This document shows, one piece after another, positions 2,761 to 56,546 of a stretch of 64,000 bases of DNA. The notes under the pieces were generated by a model. The model was not told where the DNA came from and did no database searches. It was given only the letters and a program-made list of their open reading frames with translations. The DNA lies in assembly GCA_965645245.1 (NCBI GenBank), contig OZ287067.1, forward strand, positions 992,001 to 1,056,000. Direction: 5' to 3'. Within the stretch, counting starts at the first letter, position 1. Each line of letters begins with the position of its first letter. The position numbers were made by a program, and so were the translations under genes. The stretch comes from Massalongia carnosa (Eukaryota).

Positions 2761-2803
2761 ATAAGATGGCATCGCAGGAGCTCTGCCTTGAAGGGGGAGC
2801 TAC

Positions 2804-25100: not shown

Positions 25101-25961
25101 TTCGTCAACTACGAACAAGACGACTGGGCGCGCCTGCTTCCGATGGCTGAGTTCGCGTACAACAATGCGAAAAACGCGAGTACTGGGCATACGCCGTTCG
25201 AGCTCAACTGTGGCTACCACCCCCGTGTCTCATATGAGGAAGACATCGACCCCCGTTCCAGGTCCAAGTCAGCAAATGAACTAGCTGCAGAACTAAAGGA
25301 CTTGATGGCTATCTGTAAGGAAAACCTTCAGCACGCACAAGAATGGCAGACAAAGGCCCACAACAAAGGAACCAAGCCACGGAGCTATGCACCTGGCGAT
25401 AAAGTTTGGTTGAACAGCAAATATATTAAGACCAAACGCAATCGCAAGCTAGAGGCTAAGTTCTTTGGGCCATTCCGTGTCTTGCAACCAGTGGGCAAGC
25501 AAGCCTACAAGCTGGAGCTTCCAAAGCGGTGGCGCATCCATGATGTCTTTCATGTATCACTGCTGGAGCAGGACACCACAAGGAAGGGGCGGGTGGACGA
25601 GAAGATCGCGGAACAGCTGGAATTCGAAGCTGGTAACGATGAGGAGTACGAGGTTGAAGGCATTTTGGATAGCGCGGTCTACGCCAAGGAGTCAGAAGCT
25701 GGCCACCTACCAGGCCTCTACTATCTGGTCTCCTGGAAGGGCTATCCAGAGGATGAAAGTACGTGGGAACCGGCGGCAGCGATCAAACACCTACGGAAGA
25801 TCGTCAAAGCCTACCATGAGGGTAACCCCACCAAGCCGACAGCAACCTCTCCTCCTATTGACACCGCACCGCCAATGGCTAAGCCAGCCGTTAAGCCTCA
25901 AGGCAAGAGGAAACGCGGCCGAACAGCTACCAGTACTCGGAGCAAGAAGGCGAAGAAGTAG
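22095..25961 (+). pseudogene. pol: Pol of C, interrupted by TAG at 24078-24080
   Basis: LIDSGSEVN, YLDD, TDASG, integrase, chromodomain; the frame continues after the stop (ELSR*NFRIDYRQG, where Y or F is expected). Confidence 0.92.
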
Positions 25962-26003
25962 AAGCCTCGGGGTTTCTCTCCTGCCACATGCTATGGAATC
26001 CAG

Positions 26004-26243
26004 GATCGGTTTTCCCTTCGTTTTCCCGTTATCTTATCAGGGTTTAAGGGTTTTTCATCGATCTTGAGAAGTCGGTTTTCCCTACGTTCTCCCATTGTCT
26101 TATCAGGGTTTTAGGGTTTTTCATCGATTTCGATAAAGTCGGTTTTCCTCCTCAGTTCCCACTGGGTTAGGAGGTTTTTCATTGACTTCGGAGGCCGGTT
26201 TTCCTCCTTGCTATCATACAAGGAAGGAGGTTTTTCACCGCCT
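26004..26243 (+). other. Four tandem ENE-like (U-rich internal loop) RNA elements in the 3' UTR of C
   Basis: Units 26004-26063, 26069-26130, 26136-26188 and 26192-26243 each read lower stem-TTTT-upper stem...upper stem'-TTTTT-CA-lower stem', with covarying upper stems. Confidence 0.85.
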
Positions 26244-26328
26244 GCCATACACATCATACCACCCACCTAACGTGTCGTTACTATCTACTACACGCTCGGC
26301 GGAGCTCGCGTCCTAGAGGGGAGGCAAT

Positions 26329-27358
26329 TGTAATACGGATGGCGCTAGAGGGATACGTGATCGCCTATGGCGGTTGCGGGATTAACTAGCGTGGACCATG
26401 CCGTAGTACGAAGTCGCATAAGCCGTCGAGGCTGACACACTGCCATCTTGCCCCGAAACTTCGGAGTTATTGTTATCACGTTCTTGACTACTTACAGATC
26501 AAACACCTGTCGAGGCCGTGGTGGTAGATTGCCATGGAGTGTAAGGCGGACTCCTGTGGAGACGCCAAGGAACTCTATATGGGATCTACTGGCCTACTCG
26601 GAGCTACTGGATCTCTTGATGGTTCAAGAGAGGTAGCAGGAGGCACGGCTCGCTGGACGCAGCTTGAGCTAGGCTCCCTGGTGTAAACTTCAGCTTCAAC
26701 CTTTATTACTACGTTGGTAGTGATGTCGGCTGAATGAACCTACATGACCTCGTTGTCTAGACCTTGTGTTTAGAGGCAGGTCCGCAGTGTAGCGAGGTAT
26801 TCAGTCGGAGGTAACCTTCCATCACTAGGTAGTGGTGACGGCGAAATGAAGCTACATAGCCTGAGGCATGTAGTGAGGGATCTAGCCGGGGGTAGAATTG
26901 TTCTACCTTGCAAGGGAAGGTCTAGAAGGCTGCTCGAGGCTGACTAGATGATCCAGCGAACGCCGAGTTCGTGGATGGATCCTGAGGGATGGTTGGATGT
27001 AATGCGATAAAGTCGGATGTGGATTGCAAGGCTGTAATGCTCGCAAGACTCCCAAGGCTTGCAAGGCTCCTAAGGTTCCAAGGCTCCCAAGGCTATAGGC
27101 TTGGGGTGAGTAGGATAAATATCAGAACGAATCTTGTAGTATTCGTTAGCAATTAGTCTTTATTCTATGAACAACCTACGTTTGGGTCTCGGACGAGATC
27201 TCTTGGTCTAAGCACTTCCACATCCATTAGTTCTTTGGATCACGTATACTCTCGGAGACTAGCACGTAGTAGCTATCTTCCTCCTCTCACGCTGAGCATT
27301 TCCCCTTTCGAGATCAGTGTCGCTCGTGATAAGCTTACTGGTCTCGTAGCCCATTACA
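26329..27358 (+). repeat. 3' LTR of C
   Basis: Direct repeat of 19833-20862. Confidence 0.97.
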
Positions 27359-30300
27359 AATTCAGATCTTTCTTTTGTTTATAATCATGAATTACTCATC
27401 TTGCTTTGTATTTCAGCACTTTTTAATTTCTGTCTTTCTTTATTTTGAACATTCAGCGATCGATGATCATCTTTCGATCGAACGATGCTCTTTTTAATGT
27501 TCATGTTTCATTTTTCATTAAAAATTGATACTCGATCTTCATGATCTTTTTTTATTGTTCTCAATGAGATGAGAACATTGTCTTCTTCAGAATCAGAGAT
27601 TCATCGAGATTCTCGTTGTTCTCGTTTCTTGTCAGAATAATCAACACTCGTATCATATGTACGTGAATTTTTGAAATCTGATCTGATTTAAATAAATTGA
27701 TGCTGAATCGAATGTTCTTCAACGTTCTTTGACTGAGAATTCTTATTCGTTCAGATTTTCGAGACTCGATAAGCTGACGAGAAATGTTCTTCACTTCATC
27801 GAAGTCATTCTTCTTTTCATTCTTCTCAATTTGATTTCTTTTCGAAGCATTTACTCTCATTGATTGAAGCGTTATTCGTGATGCTGATGAGATCATTTCT
27901 GATTGAACTTTCGAATTTCTCGATATTTCAGAGCTCGAAGTTATCGAAAATAAAGAAATTGAATGTTCGATTTCGTTTTTATCAACGAAGTCGTCTGAAT
28001 CATCAAACAAATCATCGTCGTTCTGCTTTCATGAAATGTCGACGAGATTTCAGACATTTTTGTTTTTGAGATCATATACATTGTCTTCATCGACAGTGAT
28101 ATCGCGACAAACATGAATCTTTTCGATAAAAGAATCGTAGATTCGAAATTGATTGTTTTCATCGTACTCGACAAATATTTTCTGTCAAAAACGATCATTC
28201 AGCTTCTTTTTTTTCTTCTTTGAGATGTGTATTCACGTTCTCGTTTCGATCGTTCTCATATGATCGAGAAAAAATTTCGCATCGTTCATGCGTTCATATA
28301 AAGTGATCTCGTCAATCTCGAGATTTTTATTCTTGATGTATTCGATCGTTTTCAGAATTTCTTTTCAAAGTGACTTTGAAAGTTTTTTAACTTTTATCAT
28401 GAATCGAATGAAAATCATGAAAATATAATTTTGTTTTTCGATCTTTTCATTCTGTTCAGACACATTTGATGCTCGAGTCTTTCATTGAATTTCTTTTTTC
28501 TTCAGAAATTTCTGAAAATCGTCATTGATGTACTTCTCTTCTTCATCAGCTCGAAGACTCTTCATTTTCTTTCTCGATTGATTTTTTATTCATGTTTTGA
28601 ACTGCTTGAAACATTCAAAAATTTGATCTTTTGTTTTCATCAAATAAATTCAAATTATCTCGAAATAATCGTCTATTATTGTAACATAAAAGCGTTCGTC
28701 AAATCTTGTCAGCGAGAATGATCTTCTCAAATCGCTATGCAGTAAATTCAGAAATCCTGTTGCTCGAATTCTTGAAATGCGATTTATTTTTCGTTGTTGT
28801 CTGTTCATCATGCATGAATCGCATACTTCTTTCGATATGAATTCTTCAATGATGATTTCTTTGATTAAATGATTTAATTTTAGAAGATTGAGATAACTGA
28901 AATGATCATGTCGTTCGTGTCATGTTTGGATAGAGACTTTTGTCGAATTTGTGATGACGAGAACTCGTGTCTCGATAAAGCTGATAATGATTGTCTGCAA
29001 AACATATTGATCGTTTATTGTTTTGATCAGTTCAATCATTCTTTCTTTATAAATCAATTGAGCGAGCTTGTCATTCGCTTTCAAATACGTTGATATGTTC
29101 TTCTTGTCGAATTGAATTGTGCTGATCAGATTGAATTTTAAATCGAAAATCAAAAGAACGTTGATCAAAATGAGATTCGTTACACTTTCATTTTCATTGT
29201 CGAGTGATACGAGCAGAGAATCTTTTTTTTCTGTTGATAACATCTTTTCGAAGCCTGTTTTCAAGCGATTGTTTTCATTTCGAAAAGTTTCTTCTTGAAA
29301 AAGGTCATTGTTGCATATAATGTGCGCGATGACATCGAAATCGATCAACAGATCGTGAGCATTCTTGAAATCTCGATACAGATTTGTCATACAAATAAGC
29401 GATGTCTTCTGAATTTTTTTCTTGAAGCATTTTCTTATTGTACAAACTATTTGAGATTTTGAGATTTCATTATCTTTTTTGCTTTCACAAACGCGTTTCA
29501 GATGATCAATCTTATTACACTTTTTACATGTAGCGTTGCTATGCCTGCATTTTTCGAAATGATTATAATCACAGCATTTACATTTGTTCTTATTCTCTTC
29601 GATGAGATTCTTCTTTTTCTTTGTTTTCAGCATGTTAGCTACGACGACAGGATTCTGACGCATACGAGTCTTTTCGTTCTTCAGGTTTTTTAATAAGTCG
29701 TTCAACGTCGAAAATTTGTTTTCTCGTCGAGCTTGTTCGTTCAGAATGATCAAATAAATGTTGAATGAACTGTCGAGTTCATTGAGAAGTTTGAGCACTA
29801 CAATGTGCTCAACGATCAAAATCATGTCGATGATTTCGAACTTGATGTTTCTGATTAGATTATCATACTTCTCGATGATCTTGCATTTTTCATAATTTAT
29901 TTTTTTCATTCGATTAAATGTGCTTCATTTCGCACTTCAATTTCTGAAAATGTATCGAATTTTCAGATGTTCTCAAAGATTCTTCGAGTCTCAAATGTTT
30001 TCATTGATTAAATCTCTCATCGACAAGAATTCCTGTTGCACGTCATTCGTGCACATTTTGTTTATTTTATCAATTACTCTTTTTTGTTTTTTCGAGAACT
30101 TTAGACGTTCAAGATTTCGTTTGTTTCGTTTTTTTAACTGTTTCTCTGTTTTCTTCGAGAATGTCTCATCAGCTTTTTGAAATGAAGAAAAAATTTCTCG
30201 AGACATTTTTCGAGCATCAGTCACGTAGTTTCAAAGTTTCGTCTTCTGCAGAGCGAAGATCATGTCTCTGAATCATTTCTTATAGTTTTCACTCCTCATT

Positions 30301-31801
30301 AGCTTTGAGAATGTGTATAAATTCTCTTCTCTGATCATGATGCCTTCGAGGTCGTTGAAGAGGAATGTAATGGGCTACGAGACCAGTAAGCTAATCACGA
30401 GCGACACTGATCTCGAAAGGGGAAATGCTCAGCGTGAGAGGTGGAAGATAGCTTCTACGTGCTGGTCTCCGAGAGTATACGTGATCCAAAGAACTAATGG
30501 ATGTGAAAGTGCTTAGACCAAGAGATCTCGTCCGAGACCCAAACGTAGGTTGTTCATAGAATAAAGACTAATTGCTAACGAATACTACAGGATTCGTTCT
30601 GGTATTTATCCTACTCACCCCAAGCCTATAGCCTTGGGAGCCTTGGAACCTTAGGAGCCTTGCAACCCACATCTGACCTTATCGCCTTACATCTAACCAT
30701 CCCTCAGGATCCATCTACGAACTCGGCGTTCGCTGGATCATCTAGTCAGCCTCGAGCAGCCTTCTAGACCTTCCCTTGCAAGGTAGAACACTTCTACCTC
30801 CGGCTAGATCTCTCGCCACATTGCTAGCCCGCCTCTAAACAGAAAGTCTAGACGCCGAGGCTACGTAGCTTCATTTCGCCGTCACCACTACCAACGTAGC
30901 GGTGGAAGGTTACCTCCGACTGAATCTCTGTCTACACTGCGGACCTGCCTCTAGACACAAGGTCTAGACCACAAGGTCATGTAGGTTCACTCAGTCGACA
31001 TCACTACCAACGTAGCAATAAAGGTGGAAGCTGAAGTTTACACCGGGGAGGCCGAGCTCAAGCTGCGTCCAGCTAGCCGTGCCTCCTGCTACAACTCTTG
31101 ATCCATCAAGAGATCGTGTAGCTCCGAGTAGGCCAGTAGATTCCATATAGAGTTCACGGCTAGTCTCCACAGGAGTTCGCCTTACACTCCATGGCAATCT
31201 ACCACCGCGGCCTCGACAGGTGTTTGATCTGTAAGCAGTCTAGAACGTAGTAACAACTAATCCGAAGTTGTGTGGCAAGGTGGCGTTGTGGCAAGATAGC
31301 GATGTGTCAAGGTGGCGATGTGGCAACCTCGACGGCTATGCTACTTCGTACTACGGCTTGGCTCATGCTAGTTAATCCCGCAACCGCCCTAGGCGATCAC
31401 GTATCCCTCTAGCGCCATCCGTATTACAAGGAAAGAGTTCTTTCGTTGAACGAAGCTTTGAAATAAATGAGAAGTATATGTATATATAATATAGGATGGA
31501 GTAGATGAGAGAGATGAAGGTGAGTTTGTTTGACAATCAATGTGGGGGCTTAATCAGACGTAGTAGAAGTAAGCCGGGCTCATAACCTAATAAATGATAA
31601 ATTCACGTGTAGGTGTTATAGCATGATTGTCATTGAAGGTGATTATCTATGTGGGCTATTTGTCTGCTTATATAGCAGTCACAAAACAGTTACACCTAGG
31701 AGCCTAAACAGTCATACTGTAGGCCTTCCATATCTGCCTATTAGACACCTCCCGAGACTCATGATGGATGCCTATATTGATGATGGCCTCATCATCTGAC
31801 A
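27359..31801 (-). mobile_element. Ty1/copia copy 2, RIP-degenerate, 3' part lost at element C
   Basis: Colinear with copy 1 from 13840 onward; PBS GGTTATGAGCCCGG (minus, 31574-31587); 5' LTR 31588-31801. Confidence 0.9.
30366..31428 (-). repeat. Solo LTR of a C-family variant, inserted in copia copy 2
   Basis: Diverged reverse complement of the C LTR with 5-bp TSD AGGAA (30361-30365, 31429-31433). Confidence 0.93.
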
Positions 31802-32154: not shown

Positions 32155-32758
32155 TGTGAGGACTGAATACGAACAGTGTGACTATATGGCGTCTATGTCA
32201 TGAAATGCCTCCGACCTCACCACGTGCCTCTATCACGTGCCTTGATCTGATGACTACTCACGGACGTCGTGCCATGCCTTCGGGACCCTCATATCATTCT
32301 TCGAATTCGCCGATTACTGATCATTAATCAGCCTCGCATTGATGATTTATTCCCGTCTTTCGACTATTATCATGTCTAATAGCTTCGCATTGATGTTTGA
32401 CATCTCCCGTCTCCTCGCTGACCCCATCGTGCTTATTGCCGCTATAATGCCCCTCATTCATCATCGCACTGACTAGACATCATTCGCCGCCACCCTAGAA
32501 AGATGAATATGGGAGGACAAAGATATAAGAAAGAAGCCGAATCATGGAAGTTCTGATTCTTTGTCGAACGTCTTGAATAGCCAACCTAGCCTAGCCTAGA
32601 TTCATAGCTATAGACTCAATCAATAAGCTTGACCATCAACCCACCTTGCCTTTGCCCTTGCCCTCGACCTGATTTCGTGACATTACGTTCGACCAACATT
32701 CAAAAGTGCCTTCCATAGCATTTTCCCTCATCTCCCTTTATCTCATTCCCCCTCAATC

Positions 32759-33901
32759 ATGTCTTCAGCAGAAGAGAACCTCTCCGAGCTGGATAAGCGT
32801 ATTCGATTCATTCAGGAACGTCTTCAGGCAGACCCTCAGCAATTCCTGAGTCAAATGGACAACCTAGAAGCCGAAGTAAACCAACTTCGCAACAATGCCA
32901 ATACCCCTTCTATTTCCGAGCCCATACCTATCTCAAATCCACCCCCCCCTACCTTGGATCCGCAAATCATGGCCATGATGCAGCTGCTCCTGGCGTCAAA
33001 AAACTCCCTCATCCGCTCCGAAAAGCTCCCGGACATCACGGAGTATGAGGGCGAAGAAGTCAAGCTGGATGCGTGGGAGCAGTCCCTGATTCAAAGAATG
33101 CATGTCAACAATGATCGATACCCGTTCGATCAAGCCAAAATTGCCTATGCCGAAAGCCGACTCACCATAGGCAAAAAGGCTCATAACCTAATGAATGCGT
33201 ACAGGGTCGATGGCCTTTGCGTACTCACCTCATTTGCTGAATGGCGATCAGCCCTCCGCCGCGCATGCGGAAATCCCTACGAGCAGGAGGATGCTCGCAA
33301 ATACCTTCGCGATATCCTCAAACAGGGAAGTAGTAGCTTCGAGGAGTACTACAACCTTTTTGCGCAGAAAAAAGACCGGTCCAAGATGGAAGATGCCAGC
33401 CTGATCGATGCCATGAAGGCAAATGTGAATTATTCAACCCAGACCGCAGCCCTAATGTATAGGGTCCCCGGAACCCAAAGGCAACCAACCACCTTCGACG
33501 AGCACGTCACCATGTGGTTGGAGACAGATCGTGGCCTTCGGCAGATCCGCCACATTGCCCCAAAGGCGAACACCACCACTATCACCCCGACACCGAAAAA
33601 GCCAAACCCGTTATCAGCACTTCCCCCGACAGTCGCTCCCGCTGCCAAAGCACCTGTCGCTTCTCCCGCCTCCCCTGCGCTGCTCATTGGCGACCCCATG
33701 GACCTAAGCTCTGCCATGGCAGCGGTGAAAGGCCAATCGCTCAAAACCGAGGGGGTCCGCAAAATCTGCGAAGACTGGAAGTTGTGTTTCTACTGCAAAT
33801 TGCAGCATCCAGGGAAGTCAGCAACTGACTGTCCCAACAAGCGAACCAACCTTCGGAGCATGGAGCTCGAAGCCCCTGATATTGAGCAGGGAAAAGCCTA
33901 G
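32759..33901 (+). CDS. gag: Gag of A2
   Basis: EKLPDITEYEG, DPMDLS, variant knuckle CFYCKLQHPGKSATDC; ends G GGA AAA GCC TAG. Confidence 0.95.
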   Translation: MSSAEENLSELDKRIRFIQERLQADPQQFLSQMDNLEAEVNQLRNNANTPSISEPIPISNPPPPTLDPQIMAMMQLLLASKNSLIRSEKLPDITEYEGEEVKLDAWEQSLIQRMHVNNDRYPFDQAKIAYAESRLTIGKKAHNLMNAYRVDGLCVLTSFAEWRSALRRACGNPYEQEDARKYLRDILKQGSSSFEEYYNLFAQKKDRSKMEDASLIDAMKANVNYSTQTAALMYRVPGTQRQPTTFDEHVTMWLETDRGLRQIRHIAPKANTTTITPTPKKPNPLSALPPTVAPAAKAPVASPASPALLIGDPMDLSSAMAAVKGQSLKTEGVRKICEDWKLCFYCKLQHPGKSATDCPNKRTNLRSMELEAPDIEQGKA

Positions 33902-36900
33902 TCTCTGCACATCGTCGCGTGCAGGGACTCCCCCCCCTTCTCATTTCCTCATGTTTGATGGCCAGTTTTTCCCCCTCTTTGAGATCCAATACGCGATTTT
34001 CCGCAGCCTCCGCTTTGGAGCTGTTTGAATCAGATAAGACGTTCAGAGACAGTCACATGGTGATGACAGGTATCTTGCGATTATCTAGATCTAGGATTAG
34101 AACGTATAATCTAATTGATTGTGGTGCATCTGGCTTTTCATTCATCGATGAGAAATTTGCGCATACTAACCAAATTCCCCTTCATCTTCTCAAATATCCC
34201 CGCCGGCTCGAAGGATTCGACGGCCAAAGGGCTCTATCCGGCAATATCACTCATGTGGCCGAAATCACCATGGATCTAGAAGGTCATGTAGAAAAACTCT
34301 TTCTATATGTCACCGGGTTAAAAAATTATCCCATTATCCTGGGCCATCCATGGCTCCGCCGGCATAACGCCATAGCCGATTTTGGGCATAATACGCTCAC
34401 CTTTGCCTCCCCCTACTGCCTCACTCACTGTTGCCCCCACCCCGTCAAGCTTCAAGCCGTTGAGGAAGAATTCCTCACCCCAGCCGAGAGTCGAAAAATC
34501 TGGGATGAAGAGATCCTCGAAGACGCCCTAGGAAAAGTTATCAATCAAGACACGTCTATCAGAACGTCGATAACTTCTCTAGAAGAGGGGGAAGAAATTC
34601 CCACAATCAAAAATTCTATTCCTGACAATCCCGTCAAAATCGAGGAATCCATCCCTTTGTTCAAAACCGCGCAGCGCGATTTCACCTTAATCAAACCCGA
34701 AATTAATGAACCCGAACCCCAGCCTCAAAACCCCACCGATGAACCCAGTCGCATTGAAAATGCAATCCAGCAAGGGCTTCCCCCCCCGAAAATCCGATAC
34801 CGAAGCCCGTCCAAATTGCGGACATCCACCCAAAGACGTGCTCATCAAGCAGCACGCAAAACCACCCCGCAGATGAATGTCTGCGAAATCGGAGCTATCT
34901 CCTTCAATCGACTGACTCGGAAGAAAAACCACGATAGTTTCGCCCTGTCCATGAAAGAAATTGACCTCTTTCTAGGAAAAACCAACCCCGAACCTCTAGT
35001 AATGAAAGCCTCACCTAGTTCAGCCCCCGATTTGATCGAAAAAGCCAAAAAACCCAGCCCAGCCTACCAACCATTGCCATCTGGAGCAAGCCCGCACGAG
35101 AAAGAAATCCACCTAGCCTTATTTAAGATGAATAAGGCCCTAACCCTAGCCACCGCCGTGACTCGTGAAGAGTTAGACGCTTACCGAGAAAGTAAGAACG
35201 TCGACCCAGCCCCCCTTCTGCCAAAGCAATACCACGAATTCCTAGATGTCTTCTCGAAGAAGAAATCCGAAGACTTGCCCCCCCGCCGTCCCTACGATCA
35301 TGCCATAAACCTGAAAGAAGGTACGCAGGCCCCTAGTCAGGCCCTGTATGGTATGAGTCGTACCGAAATCGAGGAGCTCCGCCGCTACCTCGACGAAAAT
35401 CTAGCCAAGGGATTTATTCGGGCTAGTCGCTCCCACGCCGCCTCCCCGGTGATGTTCGTGAAAAAGCCAGGTGGGGGACTTCGATTTTGCGTGGATTATC
35501 GTGCTCTGAATGCCATCACGATTAAGGATCGCTATCCGCTGCCCTTGATCGCCGAGACCCTGCACCAATTAATCAAAGCCAAGATATTCACCAAGATAGA
35601 CATCATCGCCGCCTTCAATATGCTCCGCATACGAGAAGGAGACGAAGAACTCACCGCTTTTCGCACTCGTTTCGGCCTTTTCGAGTCCTTGGTCCTACCC
35701 TTCGGCCTATGCAACGGGCCCGCCTCATTTCAGCACTTCATCAACGATACGCTTCACGAGTATCTTGCTGACTTTTGCACTGCGTACCTAGATGATATCC
35801 TCATCTACAGTGACAATGAGCTGGAGCACGAGGTCCACGTCAAAAAAATCCTGTCTCGACTCCGAGATGCAGGCCTGCAAGCCGACATCACCAAGTGCAA
35901 GTTCCATGTCACCGAAATTGCATACCTAGGGATGATCGTGACCACCGAAGGGATAAAAATGGACCCGGCCAAGGTGGAAACCGTCGTCAATTGGCCAAAC
36001 CTCGTCAATGTGAAAGATGTGCAAAGCTTTCTGGGTTTTGCTAACTTTTATAGACGATTCGTGTATGGGTTTAGCGACATAGCTGGCCCCCTAACCAACC
36101 TGACCAAGAAGGAGACGGAATTCCTGTGGACTGACAAATGCCAATTGGCATTCGAAATGCTGAAAAAAGCTTTCACCTCCGATGTCATTCTCAGGCATTT
36201 CGACCCCGATCGTCCCATCATCGTCGAAACCGATGCCTCCGACTATGTTTCGGGGGGCATTCTTTCTCAATACGACGATGATGGGATACTTCACCCCGTC
36301 GCCTACTTCTCAAAGAAGCACAATCCCGCCGAGTGCAACTACGAGATCTATGACAAAGAACTGATGGCAATCGTTCGATGTTTTGAAGAATGGCGACCCG
36401 AACTAGAAGGATCTGCCTTCCCCATCAGCGTCATATCCGACCACAAAAACCTGGAGTATTTTGCCTCCACCAAGCAGCTCAGCCGTCGCCAAGCTAGATG
36501 GAGCGAATTTCTCTCTCGATTTGACTTCAAGATAGTCTATCGACCAGGAAAAGCCGGAGGAAAACCGGACGCTCTAACTCGTCGATCGGGAGATCTTCCT
36601 AAAGAAGGGGATGATACGGACGAGCGAAGGAAATTTCAACACCAAACCATTTTGAAAACCGAAAACCTGGATGAGGAAGTCGCAAAAAGTTATTTGCGAT
36701 CCATTCTTCTGGCACCAGCTTTCCTAGATGATGCAGATATCGAAGAAGCAGAACCTCAGCTAGATGAGGACCTCATCGATCCCGATGAGGATATCTCCAC
36801 GGAGCTCCTCTGGGAACAAGCCCTGACACGAGACCAATTCGCCCCCGAAGTCCTGGAAGCCCTTCGTAATAACGAGAGGCATCACAATCGAATCCAATTA

Positions 36901-38346
36901 GCCGAATGCGAAGATAGGGACGGTATCTTGTATTTTCGAAACAAGAAATACGTACCTCGATCCGATCGTCTGAGGCTTCGTATCATTCAACTCGCTCACG
37001 ATAGCGTCGCCGGCGGACATCCGGGCCGTTCCAAATGCCATGAAGTGGTAAATCGATCCTACTGGTGGCCCAGCATGCATCAGTCCATCAAGCGATTTAT
37101 CCGAAACTGCCACACTTGCAGAAGATCAAAACCATCCCGCCAGCGCTATCAGGGCTGGCTACGCCCACTCCCCCCCCCCGAGCGCAGATGGCGGGATATT
37201 TCCATGGATTATGTAGGCCCCCTGACCCCCAGCACCTTCATGGGAATCACTTATCGCTACATCTTGGTGGTTATAGATCGCCTGTCCAAGATGCGACATT
37301 TCATTCCTATCACGTCCATGGAAGTTGAAGACGCCGCCGATGCGTTCTATCAGAATGTCTGGAAACTACATGGGCTTCCCGAAGCCATGGTTTCTGATCG
37401 TGGCCCCCAATTCGTCTCCGATTTCTGGCAGCTCATGTGCAAGAGGCTGAAAATCGACGCCAAGCTATCCACCGGATACCACCCGGAGACCGACGGGCAG
37501 ACCGAGCGAGCCAACGCCACCATGGAGCACTACCTAAGGGCTTATGTCAACTACATGCAGGATGACTGGGCACAATGGCTTCCTGGCGCCGAATTCGCCA
37601 GCAATAACACCGATTCATCTAGTATCCTGGCCTCCCCCTTCCTAGCCAACTTCGGGCAACATCCCCGCATGGGATTTGAACCGGAGGAACCCCTGCCGCA
37701 AGACCTAACCGCTCAGGGCAGAGCAAACCTAGTTGCAGCCAATCAGTTCGTGAATAAGATGCAGGATATCGACACTCATCTTCGAGACGAAATGCTGATG
37801 GCCCAAGCTTCGTACGAAGCAACTGCAAATGCTAACCGACGTCCCTGCCCCCGCTATTTCGTTGGCGATATGGTGTGGCTAAGCACCAGAAATATCCAAA
37901 CCGCTCGCCCCACAGTCAAGCTGGATGACCGAAATATCGGCCCCTACCGCGTCAGCAAGGTGTTTTCCAACCCCTTGATCGTACAGCTGGAGCTTCCCGA
38001 TACCGTCAAAATCCATCCCGTCTTTCACGTCAATCTGTTGCAGCATGATGCCAATGACCCCCTCCCCGGGCAGAGACCGGAGCCTAGAGACCCCGTCATC
38101 GCCGAAGATGGCCAACGAGAATGGTATGTCAATAGGGTATTGAATTCCAAGCTCGACCGACGTTTTCAACCCCCGCTTCTGAAATACCTAGTGGATTGGG
38201 AAGGGCATCCTTCCACCTGGGAGCCTTTCAACTATCTCATCAATTGTCAGCAAGTCATAGACGAATACCACCAAGCCTATCCCAATGCGGCCGGCCCTCA
38301 TCTAAACCCCTGTCAAATTCCCCGTTGCCAATGCCACGAGGCATAG
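33889..38346 (+). CDS. pol: Pol of A2 (PR-RT-RH-IN-chromodomain), probably via -1 frameshift
   Basis: LIDCGAS, YLDD, integrase, chromodomain; open throughout; -1 frame relative to gag. Confidence 0.96.
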   Translation, partial: GKSLVSAHRRVQGLPPLLISSCLMASFSPSLRSNTRFSAASALELFESDKTFRDSHMVMTGILRLSRSRIRTYNLIDCGASGFSFIDEKFAHTNQIPLHLLKYPRRLEGFDGQRALSGNITHVAEITMDLEGHVEKLFLYVTGLKNYPIILGHPWLRRHNAIADFGHNTLTFASPYCLTHCCPHPVKLQAVEEEFLTPAESRKIWDEEILEDALGKVINQDTSIRTSITSLEEGEEIPTIKNSIPDNPVKIEESIPLFKTAQRDFTLIKPEINEPEPQPQNPTDEPSRIENAIQQGLPPPKIRYRSPSKLRTSTQRRAHQAARKTTPQMNVCEIGAISFNRLTRKKNHDSFALSMKEIDLFLGKTNPEPLVMKASPSSAPDLIEKAKKPSPAYQPLPSGASPHEKEIHLALFKMNKALTLATAVTREELDAYRESKNVDPAPLLPKQYHEFLDVFSKKKSEDLPPRRPYDHAINLKEGTQAPSQALYGMSRTEIEELRRYLDENLAKGFIRASRSHAASPVMFVKKPGGGLRFCVDYRALNAITIKDRYPLPLIAETLHQLIKAKIFTKIDIIAAFNMLRIREGDEELTAFRTRFGLFESLVLPFGLCNGPASFQHFINDTLHEYLADFCTAYLDDILIYSDNELEHEVHVKKILSRLRDAGLQADITKCKFHVTEIAYLGMIVTTEGIKMDPAKVETVVNWPNLVNVKDVQSFLGFANFYRRFVYGFSDIAGPLTNLTKKETEFLWTDKCQLAFEMLKKAFTSDVILRHFDPDRPIIVETDASDYVSGGILSQYDDDGILHPVAYFSKKHNPAECNYEIYDKELMAIVRCFEEWRPELEGSAFPISVISDHKNLEYFASTKQLSRRQARWSEFLSRFDFKIVYRPGKAGGKPDALTRRSGDLPKEGDDTDERRKFQHQTILKTENLDEEVAKSYLRSILLAPAFLDDADIEEAEPQLDEDLIDPDEDISTELLWEQALTRDQFAPEVLEALRNNERHHNRIQLAECEDRDGILYFRNKKYVPRSDRLRLRIIQLAHDSVAGGHPGRSKCHEVVNRSYWWPSMHQSIKRFIRNCHTCRRSKPSRQRYQGWLRPLPPPERRWRDISMDYVGPLTPSTFMGITYRYILVVIDRLSKMRHFIPITSMEVEDAADAFYQNVWKLHGLPEAMVSDRGPQFVSDFWQLMCKRLKIDAKLSTGYHPETDGQTERANATMEHYLRAYVNYMQDDWAQWLPGAEFASNNTDSSSILASPFLANFGQHPRMGFEPEEPLPQDLTAQGRANLVAANQFVNKMQDIDTHLRDEMLMAQASYEATANANRRPCPRYFVGDMVWLSTRNIQTARPTVKLDDRNIGPYRVSKVFSNPLIVQLELPDTVKIHPVFHVNLLQHDANDPLPGQRPEPRDPVIAEDGQREWYVNRVLNSKLDRRFQPPLLKYLVDWEGHPSTWEPFNYLINCQQVIDEYHQAYPNAAGPHLNPCQIPRCQCHEA

Positions 38347-39056
38347 ATAAGATGGCATCGCAGGAGCTCTGCCTTGAAGGGGGAGCTACTGTCATGAAAT
38401 GCCTCCGACCTCACCACGTGCCTCTATCACGTGCCTTGATCTGATGACTACTCACGGACGTCGTGCCATGCCTTCGGGACCCTCATATCATTCTTCGAAT
38501 TCGCCGATTACTGATCATTAATCAGCCTCGCATTGATGATTTATTCCCGTCTTTCGACTATTATCATGTCTAATAGCTTCGCATTGATGTTTGACATCTC
38601 CCGTCTCCTCGCTGACCCCATCGTGCTTATTGCCGCTATAATGCCCCTCATTCATCATCGCACTGACTAGACATCATTCGCCGCCACCCTAGAAAGATGA
38701 ATATGGGAGGACAAAGATATAAGAAAGAAGCCGAATCATGGAAGTTCTGATTCTTTGTCGAACGTCTTGAATAGCCAACCTAGCCTAGCCTAGATTCATA
38801 GCTATAGACTCAATCAATAAGCTTGACCATCAACCCACCTTGCCTTTGCCCTTGCCCTCGACCTGATTTCGTGACAGTCTATGTAGCTGTTGCTGGGCAA
38901 TAGCAAGGCAGTCACTGGGGGAAAGCAGTGTAGGGGGGTTGATCAAGTAGATTGATCAGTGGCCTTCGAAAGAGGTGGGCGATAGGTCCTTTATCCTATA
39001 GTCCCACCTCGATCAGGCCACGTCTATCATACTAGTTACTACTACATGATTGACTC

Positions 39057-41439
39057 TGTAGAGGGGTGGAGTGGAACTCCACCGGGTCGGTGGCAAGTGA
39101 GGTGATGAGTCAGGTGATTGGTCATGTGGTCGGGTGCTGGCGTCTTGGCGTTCCGGTTATATGAGTCTTTTTCTCAAACTTTCCTTCTCATCTTTCGGGA
39201 TATCCATCTTCGGATCATACTGCTATCAACACATACAGCTATCATAGACACTTTCATTCATACAGCTAGTCGGCCATTGATGGGCATGACGATTAATTCA
39301 TCGATGCAGTGAGGCTCTGTTGATTCGGTCATTTGTTTGTTTGTTTCATCCTTCTATCGTTCGCCACCACCCAGTTTATCCCTTCACATTTGGCGACCAC
39401 GGTGCGATCGGAAGTAGTAGGACCTGAGCAAGAACATTTGAACATCATTAACCTCTTAAGCACGAGCACGAGGCTAGAAATTGAGCACTGAACACGAGGC
39501 ACGAGACACGAGACACGAGCACGAGCACTGAGACTGCGACCGAGACCGAGTACGCGACAGTGTATAAAATTGAGCACTGGGCCGAGCACACGATGGCCCC
39601 AATTTATCTTTCCCTTTTAATCACCGCGACCACCACCACCACCACCATTCTATCACCGACGACCTGCCAACCAGATGTACATTCCTGGGACTGGCTTATC
39701 CTCATCCTTGCTGCACTGACGGCCGTCACCTCGTGCATCACCTTCTGCTGCTGGGCAAGTGCGGCTGCGACCGCGAACAGGGCAGCAACGTCATCATCCG
39801 ACTCGTGTGCCTTAGTGGCACCTATCATATCTGTTGCGAACATGGAGGAATGGTTGAACAACTGCCAAGCAGCGTCCATGACACCACCCACCACTAGTCC
39901 GCCGCCGACCGAGCCTGTGACCGAGCCACATGACACCGTGTCAATCACCGAGTCTTCTGCGTCTGAGCTGGAAAGGCCAAAAATGGCATATTCGTATTCA
40001 GACTCTGATTTAGGTGCTGCACTAGCGCGGGCCGAAGAGGACCGGATGACCGACATCAACCCTGACGTCTGTGAGACTTCTGGTGCTCAGCCTATTGATT
40101 CACCTGTCACCGTTCCAGCCACCAATTCTGCCATGCCTGCACCGATCATCATGCCTGATTCATCATCTTCTGATCAATCAGCTTCGTCTTCGCCCGCTGT
40201 CGACACCGTAATATTCTCGCTGATGCTTGATTATCTTCTAATCAAGGCCATGGCGCTAGTTACTCCGATAAGCCGAATGACGGAGATGTCGGTCATTGAA
40301 GCCCTGATGCATTTAGACCCGCTCTTGGCAAAATTTATGCTAGAAACGGACGAGGGAGCAAAGATTTTGCTAGAACTTAAGAATCAGGTGCTTCAACGTC
40401 GCATGCAGACCGATCGTGACAAGGCTCATGATACACGTGGTTCAGCTAGCCCATCTCCTCCACCCCGCTCTGAAGCCTCTGTTTCAGCCAACCGTGTGAC
40501 CCATTCACCAAGCGGACGACTAGCAAGCAGAGCACCACCGAGCAAGACTTCCGGGCCCACGCCCCCTCTTCGTCGGACAGCTGCTCCGCTCCCATCGGGG
40601 CCATGGCAGTCGGAACGCGCCAGGCAGGCAAGAGTGGACCGTCGGCAACAGCAACAGCAGAGATCATGGCCGGAACAAAGTAGCTCCACTCCATTTAACA
40701 GGCCCGGCCTGTTAAATCAGCAGTCAACAACATCTCCGACCCCGATACCTCAACGCAGCGTATTCGGACCTTTGCTTATGGGCCCTGACCAACCGCGACA
40801 GACGGGTGCGTACGTACCACCTCACCTACGAGCTAACTACAAGCAGTCAGAGCAGGACTGCTCGGCCAATCAGAAGAGGTTTGTACGATATGTTTCAACT
40901 CCTGAGGGCTGGAAACAAATTGCTAGTGTCATGAATAACGTTAGCAAATTGACAGGTGTTGAGGTCAATCATGCTTGGGGATTCGACACAGCGGTCATGA
41001 GCTAGAACAGACAAGAACGTCTAATGGACTAGCTGAAAGGAGAAATGCGGGGGAGCGAAGTCTAGACTCGGTGTCATGGGACGACACCTATGTCAACCGG
41101 GGACCTATGTAGAGGGGTGGAGTGGAACTCCACCGGGTCGGTGGCAAGTGAGGTGATGAGTCAGGTGATTGGTCATGTGGTCGGGTGCTGGCGTCTTGGC
41201 GTTCCGGTTATATGAGTCTTTTTCTCAAACTTTCCTTCTCATCTTTCGGGATATCCATCTTCGGATCATACTGCTATCAACACATACAGCTATCATAGAC
41301 ACTTTCATTCATACAGCTAGTCGGCCATTGATGGGCATGACGATTAATTCATCGATGCAGTGAGGCTCTGTTGATTCGGTCATTTGTTTGTTTGTTTCAT
41401 CCTTCTATCGTTCGCCACCACCCAGTTTATCCCTTCACA
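39057..41439 (+). mobile_element. Non-autonomous LTR element G (2383 bp) with a single non-gag/pol ORF
   Basis: 332-bp LTRs 39057-39388 and 41108-41439, identical by eye, TG...CA; 4-bp TSD ACTC; PBS-like TGGCGACCACGG at 39391. Confidence 0.93.
39593..41005 (+). CDS. 470-aa hypothetical protein: N-terminal hydrophobic/TM segments, S/P/T-rich linkers, helical core, YVPPHLR motif
   Basis: Uninterrupted, intron-less ORF filling most of G's interior; WLILILAALTAVTSCITFCCW hydrophobic helix; no RT, IN or zinc-knuckle motifs. Confidence 0.75.
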   Translation: MAPIYLSLLITATTTTTTILSPTTCQPDVHSWDWLILILAALTAVTSCITFCCWASAAATANRAATSSSDSCALVAPIISVANMEEWLNNCQAASMTPPTTSPPPTEPVTEPHDTVSITESSASELERPKMAYSYSDSDLGAALARAEEDRMTDINPDVCETSGAQPIDSPVTVPATNSAMPAPIIMPDSSSSDQSASSSPAVDTVIFSLMLDYLLIKAMALVTPISRMTEMSVIEALMHLDPLLAKFMLETDEGAKILLELKNQVLQRRMQTDRDKAHDTRGSASPSPPPRSEASVSANRVTHSPSGRLASRAPPSKTSGPTPPLRRTAAPLPSGPWQSERARQARVDRRQQQQQRSWPEQSSSTPFNRPGLLNQQSTTSPTPIPQRSVFGPLLMGPDQPRQTGAYVPPHLRANYKQSEQDCSANQKRFVRYVSTPEGWKQIASVMNNVSKLTGVEVNHAWGFDTAVMS

Positions 41440-41879
41440 ACTCGATTGAGGCTCCCTCATGGACGCTATTCCGCGCGCATCCCTTGCATGAAGTGAGCGG
41501 TTGTTATATGAAGACCTGTTCTGACAGTACCCTTCTCCTAGGGCTCATGTCCTCATGAACTTGAATTGATTTCTGTATAGCCTCAATCTATTTTCTTTCG
41601 AACTTCCGTCGTCTGTCATACTATAAGATTTCGAGATATCGAACATGATTCCTGTTCTGATCTTGCAACATGCATTTGCGATCGTACTTGTATCTTTTCT
41701 TGTGTCTAGCAAGCGTTTTTCAGCGAACGAATGAGTTGAGGCTGCTTGCAGTGAATGATAGCGAGTTTGTGAATTCAGTTTTTTGTGAATTTAGTAACGT
41801 GAATTCAACTGAGATTTCTTCTCATCATAAGTATCAGCGTTTTCTGTTTCTTTCTTTCTTTTTTACAATCATAATCATA

Positions 41880-43030
41880 ATGGCTCAACGATATTTTAAA
41901 ACACTCGATCGCTCTTCTTCTGTTGTCTCTTTCTCTTTCTCTGATGAACTTGAAGATAACTCATCACTACCTCGCAATAGTGATAGAAAATTGCCGTCTT
42001 TCGATCTGAGGGAAGTGCGTGTTCTCAACGAGTCCTCATCTGTTGCTCGGTCTTCTGAGGCTGTCATCTCGATTTTCTCGCGCTCTGTCTTGTCTTCTGT
42101 CTCTTCTTCTTCTTCTTCTCGATCTATTTTCTTGCGATCTGCTGACCCCTCGGTGCGGTTTGCCTCTGTGAGTGACCTAGGGTCACTCATGTCTAGTCAT
42201 CGTTCTTCTGAGAGCGAGAGTTCTATTAGTCTTTTCGTTGGGGATGAATCCTCAAGTGTGCGCTCGCCCTTCGGTTCGCCGGCTTCTCGTGGGCCTTCAG
42301 GTGCTGCTTTCCGTGCTTCTGCTTCCTCTGTCCTCGGGGGTTCTTCGGCCGCTCGCGCGTCTCGCGCGCCTGATGATCCTGTTCTTGTCGCCCCTTCAAT
42401 GTGGGTTCGGCTCATTTCAGATTCATGATATTGTATGCGCTGTATAAAGCGGCTGATTATTCATGATCAGCTCTGCGAGTAAGATCAAAACAAGTCATTT
42501 AAATGTGATTATTATGTGCAGCAAGGAAAATCTTGCTATCCTGTAAGTCGTGTATATTAATGCTGATAATTGATCACTAATGTGAAGGTATAAGATTCTC
42601 GCTCGTTTTCATCGCTTTGCGATGAATATTTTGATTCAGATAGAGTTCTTGATTGATGATGATTCTAACATTTCGCTCATTTATGAGCGTTTCAATTTTC
42701 TTCTGAAACGCATCTCTATATACGAGCAGAATATTATCAAGCGGGCTCGTCAGGGCACTCGAGCTCTTTTGAAGTTTTTGAATAATTTGAAGAGGATCAC
42801 GGTCGAGAACACGGCGCTATTGCGCTATCAGATAGTTGTGATTATTCTAAGCTATTGCGCTTGCTAATGTTTCTAAATAAGGCTTTCGATATTGACTCCT
42901 TCTCACGAGGACAGGTGACAGAAGTGAGAAGGTGTCGACCTCGACTCTTATAAGAGGAACGATTAATCTGATTTTCTTTGACGTTTGACAGGAGATTCGG
43001 CGGGCGTTGACTGAAGGTTCGACGAGTTAG
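41880..43030 (+). pseudogene. Antisense accessory gene of F with a Zn2Cys6-like motif, RIP-degenerate
   Basis: Ser-rich ORF from ATG 41880, then CMRCIKRLIIHDQLCE*DQNKSFKCDYYVQQGKSC; intron 42543-42594 joins in frame to ORF 42622; 3' end approximate. Confidence 0.6.
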
Positions 43031-48443: not shown

Positions 48444-48742
48444 TGTGAGGACTGAATACGAACAGTGTGACTATATGACGTCTATGTAGCTGTTGCTGGG
48501 CAATAGCAAGGCAGTCACTGAGGAAAAGCAGTGTAGGAGGATGGATCAAGTAGATTGATCAGTGGCCTTCGAAAGAGGTGGGCGATAGGTCCTTTATCCT
48601 ATAGCCTCACCTCGATCAGGCCACGTCTATCATACTAGTTACCACTACATGATAGGCTCGGTTGAGGCCCCCCCATGGACGCTATCCCGCGCGCATCCCT
48701 TGCATGGAGTGAGCGGTTGTTATATGAAGACCTGTCCTGACA
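48444..48742 (-). repeat. 5' LTR of F
   Basis: Matches 32155-32195 + 38882-39056 + 41444-41526 after removing A2 and G. Confidence 0.95.
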
Positions 48743-53205: not shown

Positions 53206-56200
53206 ATGGAAGAATACGCGAACGAAGAGGAAGCCTCTGACGGTGAAGTCTACAGGAAGATACGCAACTGTCAGTCCCAAAAGCAGTCCAGTTTGGAAAT
53301 GCGATGGTGGACTCTTCTCTCTCCACATAGGGCCAGGAATTTAAAACAACTACTTCGGCACAGGGAATTCACCCTTGCCTTTGATGCTTTCTTGGAGATA
53401 TCTGCGCTCTTAACAGGGATGAGACTTAGTACCCTACATAAGATATTCGCGATTAGATGCGATGAGGTAAATGTTTCGTCGTCGATCGTATGAATGCGCT
53501 CATCGATTGCTAGGAAATCATACATTACCTTCAATACATCAAGCAATTCTGATCTGACCTGCTTCAGCAAGACAAGATCGCGATGATCAAGATAGATCAA
53601 GTCATCGTGGAAGCGTTACAGTTCATCGCGTCATGACAATCAACACTAGATGCTCAAAATCTACGTGATAAAATGCTGAGCGAGGAAATCTTTGACAATT
53701 TTAGTCAACATGAACGCGAGGGAATCTGGATTAGGCTACAGTTCTTTAAAGGTCTGATTCCTTCTCTGTTCGAGTTCTTTGAGAACGCTAAATGCCTTGA
53801 GGCATGAGTCGACTGTGTAAAATGACTGATATGCCTAGGTCCTCGGGAAACGCTGTCCACGGCAATGAAGAAGATCTATACTGATATAAATCAGAGCGTA
53901 GACTCGACTCTGATGCAGGAAAATGAGACAACGTTCGAGTCTATGTCAGCAAACTTCACTCGTCGAATTGATCTAGAATATCGACAACTACACGCCTTTG
54001 CTATGCGTTATCACTGCGAAATTCTCAGAAAGCCTAGCGGGAAGGATCTTTTGACAAAGTCAAGGGTCAGGTTAAACACAATGAGGTTGCGTCAGATGAC
54101 TGATCTTGTCAATCATTTGAGATTCGAGTCGTTCGAGATCATCGTCTTAACGCAGTTTTCAAAGTCAACAGATCCAATGATAGTAAGAGAAAATGAAAAG
54201 CCTGCGATAGTCACGAATGATTCAGGGAAGATTAGAAAGGACAGATGTGAAATGCCACATACTCAAAATTACGAAGAGGATCGCAAATTTCTATTCATCA
54301 CACATTTACATGACGATAGAGATGAACAATTCGAGGAAATCACGTTCTACTTCAGGCTAAGATTCACGTACTTGAAGTTTTATGAGATGTCGAACGGCTT
54401 CAATTCACAACAGAATCTCACTACAGCGACAGGAGAATTATTATCCTCAGCTTTTCGTCTGACTCGATCGACTTATTCGCCAAGAGAAGATCAGGCACGA
54501 GAGGCTGAGCATATGAAGGTGGACGGGGAATCAACAGAAGACACAGTGATGCAGGATGGAGAGGGAGAAGGAGAGGAAGAGGAACAAAGACCTCCATTCC
54601 AAGCAGAAGGTACTTTTGCACAAGAACCAACGATGCAGCGACAAAAGCTCTTGTCTGAAGCAAGCGTGCTTGGAAAAAAGGAGTATGAGCAAGAGCAATA
54701 TCGGCAGAAGCTTGTGGAGGACGCAAATGCTCTCGTGGAAGAGGATCAAAGACTGGAACAAAAACGACAAAAGCTCTTGTCCGACGCAAGCACACTTGAA
54801 AAACAGGAGCAAGAGCAAGAACTTCATCGGCAGCAACTCGTATGGGATGCAGGTACAATCAGAGAACAAGAGCAGGAGCAAGGGCAGCGACGACAAAAGC
54901 TCTTGTCTCATACAAACATACTTGAAAAGCAAGGACAAGAACAAGAGCAGTACCTGCAGAAGCTTTTAAGAGATACAAGCGCGTTCGGAGAACAGGATCA
55001 GGAAAAGGAACAACAACGTCAAAAACTCTTGTCCGATGTAAGCACGCTTGAAAAGGAAGAGCAAGAGCAAGAGCAATACCAGCAGAGGCTTATAAGGGAC
55101 GCAATCGCACTCAAAGAACAAGAGCAAGAACAAGAGCGACGAAGACAAAAGCTCATCTCAGACGAAAGCGCGCTAAAAGAAGGCGAGCAAGAGCAAGAAC
55201 AAATGTATCAAAAGCTTACGAGGGACGCCAGTGCCCTTAGAGAGCAAGAGCAAAAGCGAGAGAAACAACGTCAAACTCTTGCGAGAGAAGAAAAAGAGCT
55301 ATTGAATCGAAAACAAAGGCAGAAGGAACAACGAGAAACACTCGCAGCGGACGCAAGCAAGCTAGTTTTACAAGAGAAAAAGCAGGAGGAACGAAGAAAC
55401 ATTCTCGCAGCCGTCGCGGATGAGCTCGTGAATCAAGAGCAAAGGCAAAAAGAACAGCGACAAAAGCTTGCGGAGTACGCAAGTCATCTTGAGAAACAAG
55501 AACTGAGGCAAAAAGAACAACGAAAAAAGCTTACGACAGACACTAGCGAGCTGCACAAACAAGAGAAACGCCTTAAGAAGTTAAAGAAGGATAAATTGAA
55601 GCAGAAACGAGAGCAAAAGAGCGTGAAGTCAAAGATATTGAGGAGTAAGCCGAATGAGTCAGGAACAATTCAGGAGCGAGACGAGCGAGACGTGATGAAG
55701 CTACAAAGACAAGGTCAAGAAGAACTGACAGATCTTAAACTGCCATCTTCCTTAAAGCTCGAGTATGAAGGAATAGATGTCGATCGAAGTGTACCTGAAG
55801 TACGAGCGCAGAACTATTCAATGGATGCAGTCCAGAAAAGTGATACTAAAGTGAGTGTTTCAGCACTCAAAGGTAAAAACAGTCCGGCACAAGAGCACGA
55901 ATCACAACGAGATAGAGCACAAGTGAAGGGCCAAAAGGAGAGGCTAATCGAGGAAGCCCATGAGCCTGAGGCTCAAGAGAGGGGCCAAAAGCATGAAGTG
56001 CAAGAGCGGAGGCATGAGCATCAAACGCAAGAGAACGAGCAAGAAGATAGAGCCCACGAGGATGAAGCATGTGAGGATGCAGCACATAATGATAAGGTCC
56101 AACGCGGTAGGCAAGCGGACGAAGCCCAAGAGGTTATGCAGGAGGATAAGGCACATGGGAAAGGGCAAGATGGTGGTGCGCAAGAGGATAAAGTACGAGA

Positions 56201-56546
56201 GTATCGACAAAGGAAGCGCCGACTGATGACTGAAGAGAGTGACGATGGTGCAGCACTTCGAGCACAACAGGTACGGGAAGGGCGAAAACCTGTGGAAAAG
56301 GGCAAGTATCAACGGCTTAACAGATTTGGGTTATCGAACTATAATACGAACGAGGAAGATGGAATGTCAATGGATGACACTGAAGAGAGGGTGTCTACTA
56401 TCATGCCAAGGAAAAAGCAGCCAAGGCAGGGTCTGCAGGCACAGAAAAGGGCTGGAGCAATGTCGGCCGAAAAGTTGGACGGTTCAACGGGGCTTACTTC
56501 TGAGTTTACTTATGAAGCCCCACAAGCGCCATCTCGCACTACATAA
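53206..56546 (+). pseudogene. DUF3723-family gene with a long coiled-coil repeat region, partly RIP-damaged
   Basis: EEYANEEEASDGEVYRKIR..RWW..LHK..RCDE and LIPSLFEFFEN motifs; intron from 53467; TGA at W positions near 53634, 53805, 53823; 893-aa ORF downstream. Confidence 0.8.
54630..55570 (+). repeat. Coding tandem repeat, ~63 bp / 21 aa (QKLLSDASTLEKQEQEQE..)
   Basis: More than a dozen imperfect units visible in the 893-aa translation. Confidence 0.85.

Follow-up and report, generated by a model that had tools for sequence, protein, structure and literature searches.

The DNA analysed here (the window) comprises 64,000 nucleotides of the Massalongia carnosa assembly GCA_965645245.1 (contig OZ287067.1, positions 992,001 to 1,056,000 of the forward strand), and coordinates below are window positions on the plus strand unless stated otherwise. 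Ty3/gypsy elements that bear chromodomains and, by Pfam, have complete gag and pol are nested in the window, and beside them lies a 2383-bp element bounded by long terminal repeats (LTRs), hereafter the mini element, at 39057-41439. Its layout is LTR, putative primer-binding site (PBS), single open reading frame (ORF), putative polypurine tract (PPT), LTR. The 5′ LTR (39057-39388) and the 3′ LTR (41108-41439) measure 332 bp each and show no mismatch, and in a self-comparison both edges coincide with the exact limits of identity, which confirms the length and the identical LTRs given in the original prediction, an earlier reading of the same DNA. Each LTR starts with TGTAG and ends with TCACA, and thus has the TG and CA termini of an LTR, and the 5′ LTR holds a TATA-like hexamer, TATATG, at 39158. 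The element had also been called recently mobile. This is based solely on the identical LTRs, which, with no difference over 332 bp, place only a loose limit on how old the insertion is; the adjacent elements are about equally young.

The tetranucleotide ACTC stands directly left (39053-39056) and right (41440-41443) of the LTRs. The flanks are part of an older repeat, of which a 94% identical paralogue (48476-48742) crosses the insertion point unbroken, with the empty site itself at 48620-48700. Since the tetranucleotide occurs once in this paralogue (as GCTC), the target site duplication (TSD) is 4 bp and not 5, and the ACTC on both sides together with the unbroken paralogue identifies the mini element as one insertion, into a site that reads ...TGACTC|GATTGAGG... 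when the element is removed. A BLASTN comparison of the element with the window returned only the element itself and a 25-nt inverted self-match. Immediately right of the element, within the older repeat, lies a Ser-rich ORF of 252 aa (41670-42428) that begins with hydrophobic residues and has no Pfam match.

After the 5′ LTR and a TT comes the PBS, TGGCGACCACGG, so that its TGG starts 2 nt past the LTR. It is probably 18 nt long (TGGCGACCACGGTGCGAT, 39391-39408), a length which fits the sequencing-run contigs that carry another internal sequence, because these match the element up to 39408/39409 and diverge right after it. Read backwards, the site fits a CCA end, a discriminator, a 7-nt acceptor strand, a 5-nt T-stem strand and the end of a T-loop. 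The HERV9 PBS quoted in PMC4724089 agrees with it exactly over the first 11 nt; according to that paper, the original authors assigned the HERV9 site to tRNA-Arg, whereas a tRNA database gives tRNA-Trp. The best complement to the PBS inside the element's own LTR is 7 nt, located upstream of TATATG, and none of at least 9 nt was found there. ARAGORN detected no tRNA gene in the window, nor in four metagenome loci (L001-L004) described below. The position of its TGG and its likeness to the HERV9 site make the site a probable tRNA-type PBS, as in the original prediction; the matching tRNA was not found in the window. At the other end, a weak PPT (CAACCGGGGACCTA, 41094-41107) abuts the 3′ LTR; other copies, represented by run contigs, have a better purine tract, ACTGAGGGGAGCTA, as the 14 nt next to the 3′ LTR.

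The PBS pattern was also sought elsewhere. A scan of metagenome contigs for CA, two nucleotides and the 18-nt PBS gave four loci, all rejected as lacking likeness to the LTR or the ORF. Three of them (L001, L002 and L004), in which the 18 nt follow CATC, are allelic versions of one non-repeated sequence beside a membrane-transporter-like ORF, with neither LTR nor tRNA, and the fourth is unrelated. The pattern of LTR end plus PBS had 0 matches in genome contigs.

The internal region spans 1719 bp, 82% of which is occupied by one ORF in sense orientation (39593-41005, 470 aa plus stop), the only long sense ORF. It sits in a stop-free frame of 506 codons (39485-41005), starts 184 nt past the PBS and ends 102 nt before the 3′ LTR, with no poly(A) remnant. 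The leader in front of it contains degenerate short tandem repeats of ACACGAG and CGAGAC (39492-39550), the length of which differs among copies, and run contigs show indels relative to the window at 39486-39513 and 39558. A TATAAAA stands at about 39563. The leader RNA (39389-39600) folded no better than its shuffles (z 0.10). By dinucleotide indices, a signature of repeat-induced point mutation (RIP) was absent from the mini element and from the AT-rich blocks of the window alike.

As originally noted, the intact 470-aa product has a hydrophobic N-terminus and a helix of transmembrane (TM) type. The layout of the protein was taken from hydropathy, composition and the helices common to both AlphaFold2 models. 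Moderately hydrophobic residues 1-20 are followed by a strongly hydrophobic, predicted TM helix at codons 33-57 (WLILILAALTAVTSCITFCCWASAA, 39689-39763), which is helical in both models and conserved in a relative (P0007, below). The hydropathy maximum lies at aa 35-53 (Kyte-Doolittle 2.41, 19-residue window), and the second-highest window, at aa 205-223 (1.92), falls within a helical block. Behind the helix come an acidic linker (aa 67-200, 39% Ser/Thr/Pro), a set of helices (aa ~201-283), a basic segment (aa 286-405, 16 K+R against 5 D+E) that includes an Arg-rich helix (aa ~337-357), and a short C-terminal block of two helices (aa ~410-454). The layout suggests an orphan protein in the gag position that is predicted to be N-terminally anchored in a membrane and mostly disordered.

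No reverse transcriptase, RNase H, protease or integrase was detected by Pfam on the ORF or by tblastx against the window, in line with the original prediction, which had likewise seen no zinc knuckle. Pfam returned 0 families for the ORF at E≤10; for 12 members of its family searched at E≤1 it gave three single-member matches (E 0.049-0.23), none of them Gag-related. The ESM Atlas gave no usable match, neither for the full-length protein nor for aa 200-470, and a sequence search of the PDB gave only matches at E=3-7 (a Rev peptide, mL55), which were dismissed as noise.

To find relatives, phmmer was run exhaustively on 1.84 billion representative proteins of any size, and it returned four matches. 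P0005 is 81% identical over aa 1-245, P0006 38% over aa 327-460 at the C-terminal end, and P0007, from the same contig as P0006, 46% over aa 1-64 at the N-terminal end. The last, P0008, an 857-aa repetitive protein that matches the TM segment alone in seven stretches, was discounted by eye as spurious. P0006 stands for a second subfamily about 35% identical to the first; it comprises at least seven gene calls, some of them truncated, that are 85-90% identical to one another, keep frames of 217-304 aa and lie on Mb-sized contigs of six sizes, two of which (2,433,384 and 2,436,195 bp) may be one chromosome in two assemblies. Conservation between the subfamilies is a mosaic of blocks with unalignable linkers: 26 of 56 positions are identical in the N-terminal and TM block (aa 1-57, against P0007), 13 of 18 in aa 286-335, 11-12 of 22 in the Arg-rich block and 13-15 of 37 in the C-terminal block. 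The motifs VSANRV, SGPWQSxRAR, STPFxRPGL and RFxxxVSTPEGW stand out. Profile searches among proteins of 75-823 aa found nothing outside the family, and at 824-2350 aa they found no gag-pol fusion, which the tool's note ranks as weak evidence. A protein pattern scan of genome contigs gave 175 pattern matches, 0 of them confirmed. From these alignments the ORF appears to be old, lineage-restricted and the element's own, and not a fresh capture of a host gene. The original prediction had entertained such a capture; a recent one, of a conserved gene, is unlikely, since the sole relatives in this database are multi-copy and partly decayed.

The element is repeated. Its protein forms a 90% database cluster of four gene calls, two of which are intact 470-aa forms differing at 2 residues (P0002 being the window's own) and two of which, at 383 and 375 aa, are shortened at the N-terminus. 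Copies of the ORF with 97-100% identity are found on three large contigs (2.85, 1.69 and 2.44 Mb) and on a Logan contig of 2,023 bp, and the internal region is present in five sequencing runs from three studies, one run being labelled as a lichen metagenome. Contigs of four of these runs (X1, X2, X4 and X5) were placed on window positions 38900-41107. In summed contig depth, the LTR bins stood about 6- to 60-fold above the internal bins in the four runs, although contig depth is not copy number, as the tool itself warns. Contigs left the LTR end at 39388 for unlike sequences 10 times in X1, 14 times in X2 and 4 times each in X4 and X5, further contigs entered at 39056/39057 from unlike sequences, with many distinct junctions, and the expected joint from internal region to LTR was also seen. 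On three Mb-sized contigs and a short one, and by its LTR flanks, the element thus occurs in several copies at different sites. Lacking the enzymes, it is very probably an amplified non-autonomous LTR retrotransposon, and the original prediction of a non-autonomous element is upheld by this and by a primer and a TSD unlike those of the neighbouring chromoviruses.

The run contigs also revealed variation around the same ends. In X1 and X5, one contig each joins the PBS (up to 39408) to 41070, the last 38 nt before the 3′ LTR. Such contigs possibly represent a short form with the same ends and no ORF, in which intervening letters could exist. The contig joining the PBS to 41070 and the contig with the ACTGAGGGGAGCTA variant are probably one, as they have equal depth. 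In X1 and X4 the same LTR and PBS are followed by another internal sequence, which starts after 39409, and LTR variants with internal deletions occur as well. At three places the window copy stands apart from every contig of the four runs, by Y5 versus H (39605), I235 versus N (40296) and an AG missing in the leader (39558), so its own variant is not represented in them.

Within the ORF, codons F368-N375, which encode FNRPGLLN, form a perfect palindrome, TTTAACAGGCC-C-GGCCTGTTAAA (40694-40716), with an 11-bp stem and a hairpin z score of -2.97. The 35 bp at 40685-40719 reached 5- to 16-fold the contig depth of the neighbouring bins in four of four runs and were flanked by unrelated sequence on both sides; the higher depth and the unrelated flanks indicate that an unrelated, commoner repeat shares this exact 35-bp core. 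In the second subfamily, three of the five members covering the hairpin have FDRPGLSN. The change of N369 to D (AAC to GAC) needs an A to G at stem position 4, and that of L374 to S, if TTA to TCA, would be a T to C at the partner stem position 20. Judged from the protein sequences alone, the hairpin appears to have been kept between the subfamilies by compensatory change.

Four chromoviruses share the repeat-rich region with the mini element: E1 (1-3290, partial), E2 (4850-10706, TSD ATAAC), E3 (19833-27359, TSD not scorable) and E4 (32196-38876, TSD GTCTA). Their LTR pairs are nearly identical, as are those of the mini element. Their 5-bp TSDs (E2 and E4), set against the ACTC resolved by the empty paralogue, bear out the original contrast of 4 bp with 5 bp elsewhere. 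Starting 2 nt past its 5′ LTR, E4 has a 9-nt complement (32683-32693) to its own LTR (32563-32571), and E3 has one of the same length and position (20866-20874 to 20652-20660). These self-complements fit Tf1-type self-priming, as the original prediction had held, whereas the mini element has a PBS of probable tRNA type. Neither BLASTN nor tblastx found LTR or coding similarity between the mini element and E1-E4, the window's elements being the only ones compared, and the best tblastx match of its internal region to another element of the window reached E=0.009. The PPT of E2 and E4, GAAGGGGGAGCTAC, does resemble the PPT core GAGGGGAGCTA of other mini-element copies. E1 and E4 belong to one chromovirus family, being 99.88% identical along 3290 bp. 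The 6681-bp E4 is complete: its two 487-bp LTRs are identical, and both gag (32681-33901) and pol (33886-38346) are open.

The best explanation overall, to which we give about an even chance, is that the mini element is a non-autonomous LTR retrotransposon mobilised in trans whose protein serves as a Gag substitute. Transcription would start from the element's 5′ LTR, and a host tRNA on the 18-nt PBS would prime reverse transcription. Reverse transcriptase, RNase H and integrase would be supplied by a separate LTR lineage with a like primer and 4-bp TSDs, one other than the adjacent self-priming chromoviruses with their 5-bp TSDs. The ORF product, in the gag position and of Gag size, would act for its own RNA in place of Gag, with the basic segment binding the RNA and the anchor holding it at an internal membrane where the particles of the partner assemble. 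We infer the tRNA-primed, 4-bp-TSD helper lineage from the PBS and the TSD; the membrane-tethered, RNA-handling role is likewise inferred, and that the protein has a Gag-like role at all is a tentative proposal, somewhat short of even. We regard as quite improbable a more specific version, a fungal 'TR-ORF' class in which a membrane-anchored, Arg-rich Gag substitute unrelated to capsid would be combined with mobilisation through the ORF hairpin, its 35-bp core being shared with a possible autonomous partner, its stem kept by compensatory change and the hairpin itself acting as a packaging or dimerisation mimic for entering the particles of that partner.

Several observations weigh against a Gag substitute moved in trans. 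Pfam found no zinc knuckle, Retrotrans_gag or UBN2 in the ORF, hhalign compared the family profile with the three chromovirus Gags of the window at a probability of 0.15%, and a TM anchor is unusual for Gag. The fold check proposed in the original prediction gave no compact AlphaFold2 fold, with a predicted local distance difference test (pLDDT) of 48 for the single sequence and 36.5 with a 12-row alignment, and Foldseek with the pLDDT-48 model found nothing under E=8.8. GC content by codon position is flat in the ORF (0.547/0.545/0.526; GC2 of the pol genes is about 0.40), which fits a low-complexity protein and equally a weakly constrained one. The PPT of the window copy is poor, its purine run being just 5 (GGGGA), which agrees with the weak tract noted originally. 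The partner was not found by the window comparison or the protein profile searches, nor the primer tRNA in the window, and no RNA run was found among the sequencing runs that carry the internal region.

The substitution pattern adds to these points. The 2,023-bp contig of run X5 was compared with the window, 34 of the 37 mismatches being listed, and expected counts come from scattering changes of the same types randomly over the ORF. Over the whole ORF, 17 of the 28 listed substitutions, two premature stops included, are non-synonymous against 20.0 expected (P=0.15) and 11 are synonymous; with 1061 and 349 sites, respectively, pN/pS comes to about 0.5. For codons 88-470 the figures are 10 non-synonymous among 19 against 13.7 expected (P=0.049), a result weakened by an extra non-synonymous change, N90D, present only in P0003. 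The premature stops of the X5 copy are W32* and W34*, and another gene call begins only at M96. The pN/pS between the X5 and window copies is not clearly below neutral. The absence of clear constraint among young copies is expected if copies decay freely after insertion, and the argument for a working protein comes from the frames kept across subfamilies of about 35% identity. Of the two outcomes that the original prediction had named as refuting it, a match to a known Gag or deleted gag-pol did not appear in the Pfam, hhalign or profile searches, and broken copies with neutral dN/dS are partly in evidence, in the X5 stops and in a pN/pS not clearly sub-neutral.

The same data invite the reading that the protein does nothing. 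TRIM and LARD elements possess LTRs, PBS, PPT and TSD, have no coding capacity and move in trans, and the mini element could be a small parasite of this type with the ORF as a relic and cis signals alone at work (LTR ends, PBS, PPT, perhaps the hairpin). The lack of a confident fold, the flat codon-position GC, the X5 stops and truncated gene calls, and a pN/pS not clearly sub-neutral all agree with this, and because STPFNRPGLLN coincides with the perfect hairpin, its conservation could partly be an RNA or DNA constraint. The stop-free frame of 506 codons speaks against it, however, and the block-wise conservation at about 35% of the 217-304-aa frames in the second subfamily is hard to obtain without selection on the protein along the active lineages. 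We consider a protein-free parasite unlikely.

Alternatively, a lineage-specific host gene might ride as an intron-less cDNA in a TRIM-like LTR vehicle and take no part in transposition. Such a passenger would account for an ORF with no Gag, Pol or Env signature and for an N-terminal membrane anchor, which is typical of cellular proteins, and the contigs of X1 and X5 joining the PBS to 41070 suggest an ORF-less form that is possibly the ancestral vehicle. Yet the matches include no single-copy cellular homologue, all relatives being multi-copy and partly truncated; the two repeated subfamilies imply that the association must be old; no poly(A) remnant follows the ORF; and the ORF fills most of the internal region in sense orientation. 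A passenger origin is accordingly improbable.

A similarly low probability attaches to an env-like or ORF3-like accessory ORF left over after the loss of gag and pol, with a function in particle trafficking or cell-to-cell passage. The conserved hydrophobic N-terminus and TM helix would suit it, as would the finding that the same LTR and PBS also carry another internal sequence. Retroviral-type Env proteins combine a signal peptide and a large ectodomain with a membrane-spanning segment close to the C-terminus. By hydropathy, the ORF product has a single strong hydrophobic segment (aa 33-57), N-terminal, with no membrane segment at the C-terminus; the remainder is predicted to be disordered or helical, and no second segment exceeds the TM level, the next-best being aa 205-223. 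Nor was a long protein with a related segment found, by phmmer at any size or by the profile search at 824-2350 aa, the latter being weak evidence. In favour of this reading, PMC5408684 describes a variety of additional ORFs gained by LTR elements, some of them small and with TM domains. Of the identities offered in the original prediction, an env-like factor does not, by hydropathy, have the layout of retroviral Env and no likeness to Gag was detected; a highly derived Gag or an accessory factor could still apply. A deletion derivative of a chromovirus was rejected, as the mini element has no LTR or internal likeness to E1-E4 and differs in priming type and TSD.

Among known systems, a Gag substitute moved in trans comes closest to the plant TR-GAG elements, described in PMC4350172 as about 2.5 kb long with one 433-aa ORF; they have a TRIM relative whose ends are the same, and a partner was not found for them either. 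From that description, the mini element shares with TR-GAG a length below 4 kb (here 2383 bp) with a single Gag-sized ORF (here 470 aa) and no pol, TG..CA LTRs, a TSD, a probable tRNA-type PBS, a candidate PPT, many copies at different sites and an autonomous partner that was not found (PMC4350172). The ORF-less TRIM relative of TR-GAG has a counterpart here suggested by one contig in each of two runs. The TR-GAG ORF has UBN2 and zf-CCHC as given in that source, whereas ours has neither and adds the N-terminal anchor; the TSD is 5 bp in TR-GAG and 4 bp here, and the host is a plant there and a fungus here (PMC4350172). As the defining Gag signature was tested for and is lacking, we describe the architecture as TR-GAG-like and do not file the mini element as TR-GAG. 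It also has in common with TRIM and LARD the LTRs and TSD, a probable PBS and PPT, the absence of an enzymatic ORF and the need to move in trans; these elements are non-coding, whereas the mini element keeps a 470-codon frame with diverged relatives. The ORF3 types of bdelloid rotifer LTR elements (PMC5408684) likewise place an unrelated, sometimes membrane-directed protein between LTRs, but accompany gag and pol in autonomous elements, while the ORF here stands alone. On the limited basis of our literature search, we found no description of a non-autonomous LTR element with a single TM ORF, or of one in fungi or lichens.

One-protein non-autonomous LTR elements are thus known from plants, with a protein that is plainly Gag; the present case is from a fungus and its protein has no detectable kinship to Gag. 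If that protein is needed for movement, a parasite of retroelements can exchange a capsid-type Gag for a membrane-tethered RNA handler, and such a replacement, if true, would bear on how retroelement RNAs are sorted to sites of assembly. Were it a passenger, the family would be a clear example, from a fungus, of an LTR vehicle transducing a gene. In both cases its copies look young and intact enough for testing, and the mini element would mark an undescribed tRNA-primed LTR lineage with 4-bp TSDs in this genome.

Other features of the window were recorded alongside. Two AT-rich copies of about 3 kb (13840-16816 and 27359-30338; GC 0.30-0.38) are 91% identical, the second beginning at the last base of the 3′ LTR of E3. 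One of them carries a copia-type Pol_BBD remnant, and a TpA/ApT of 0.32-0.34 is not RIP-like. DUF3723 and DUF7924 both have a fungal distribution; their presence, the Mb-sized contigs and the lichen-metagenome run suggest that the host is a lichen-forming fungus. A 906-codon frame (53826-56546) matches DUF3723 (E 7e-16) and contains four to five 126-bp tandem repeats (54636-55275) as well as a strong A-over-T skew, and a 469-codon frame on the minus strand (60405-61814) gives a full-length match to DUF7924 (E 3e-90).

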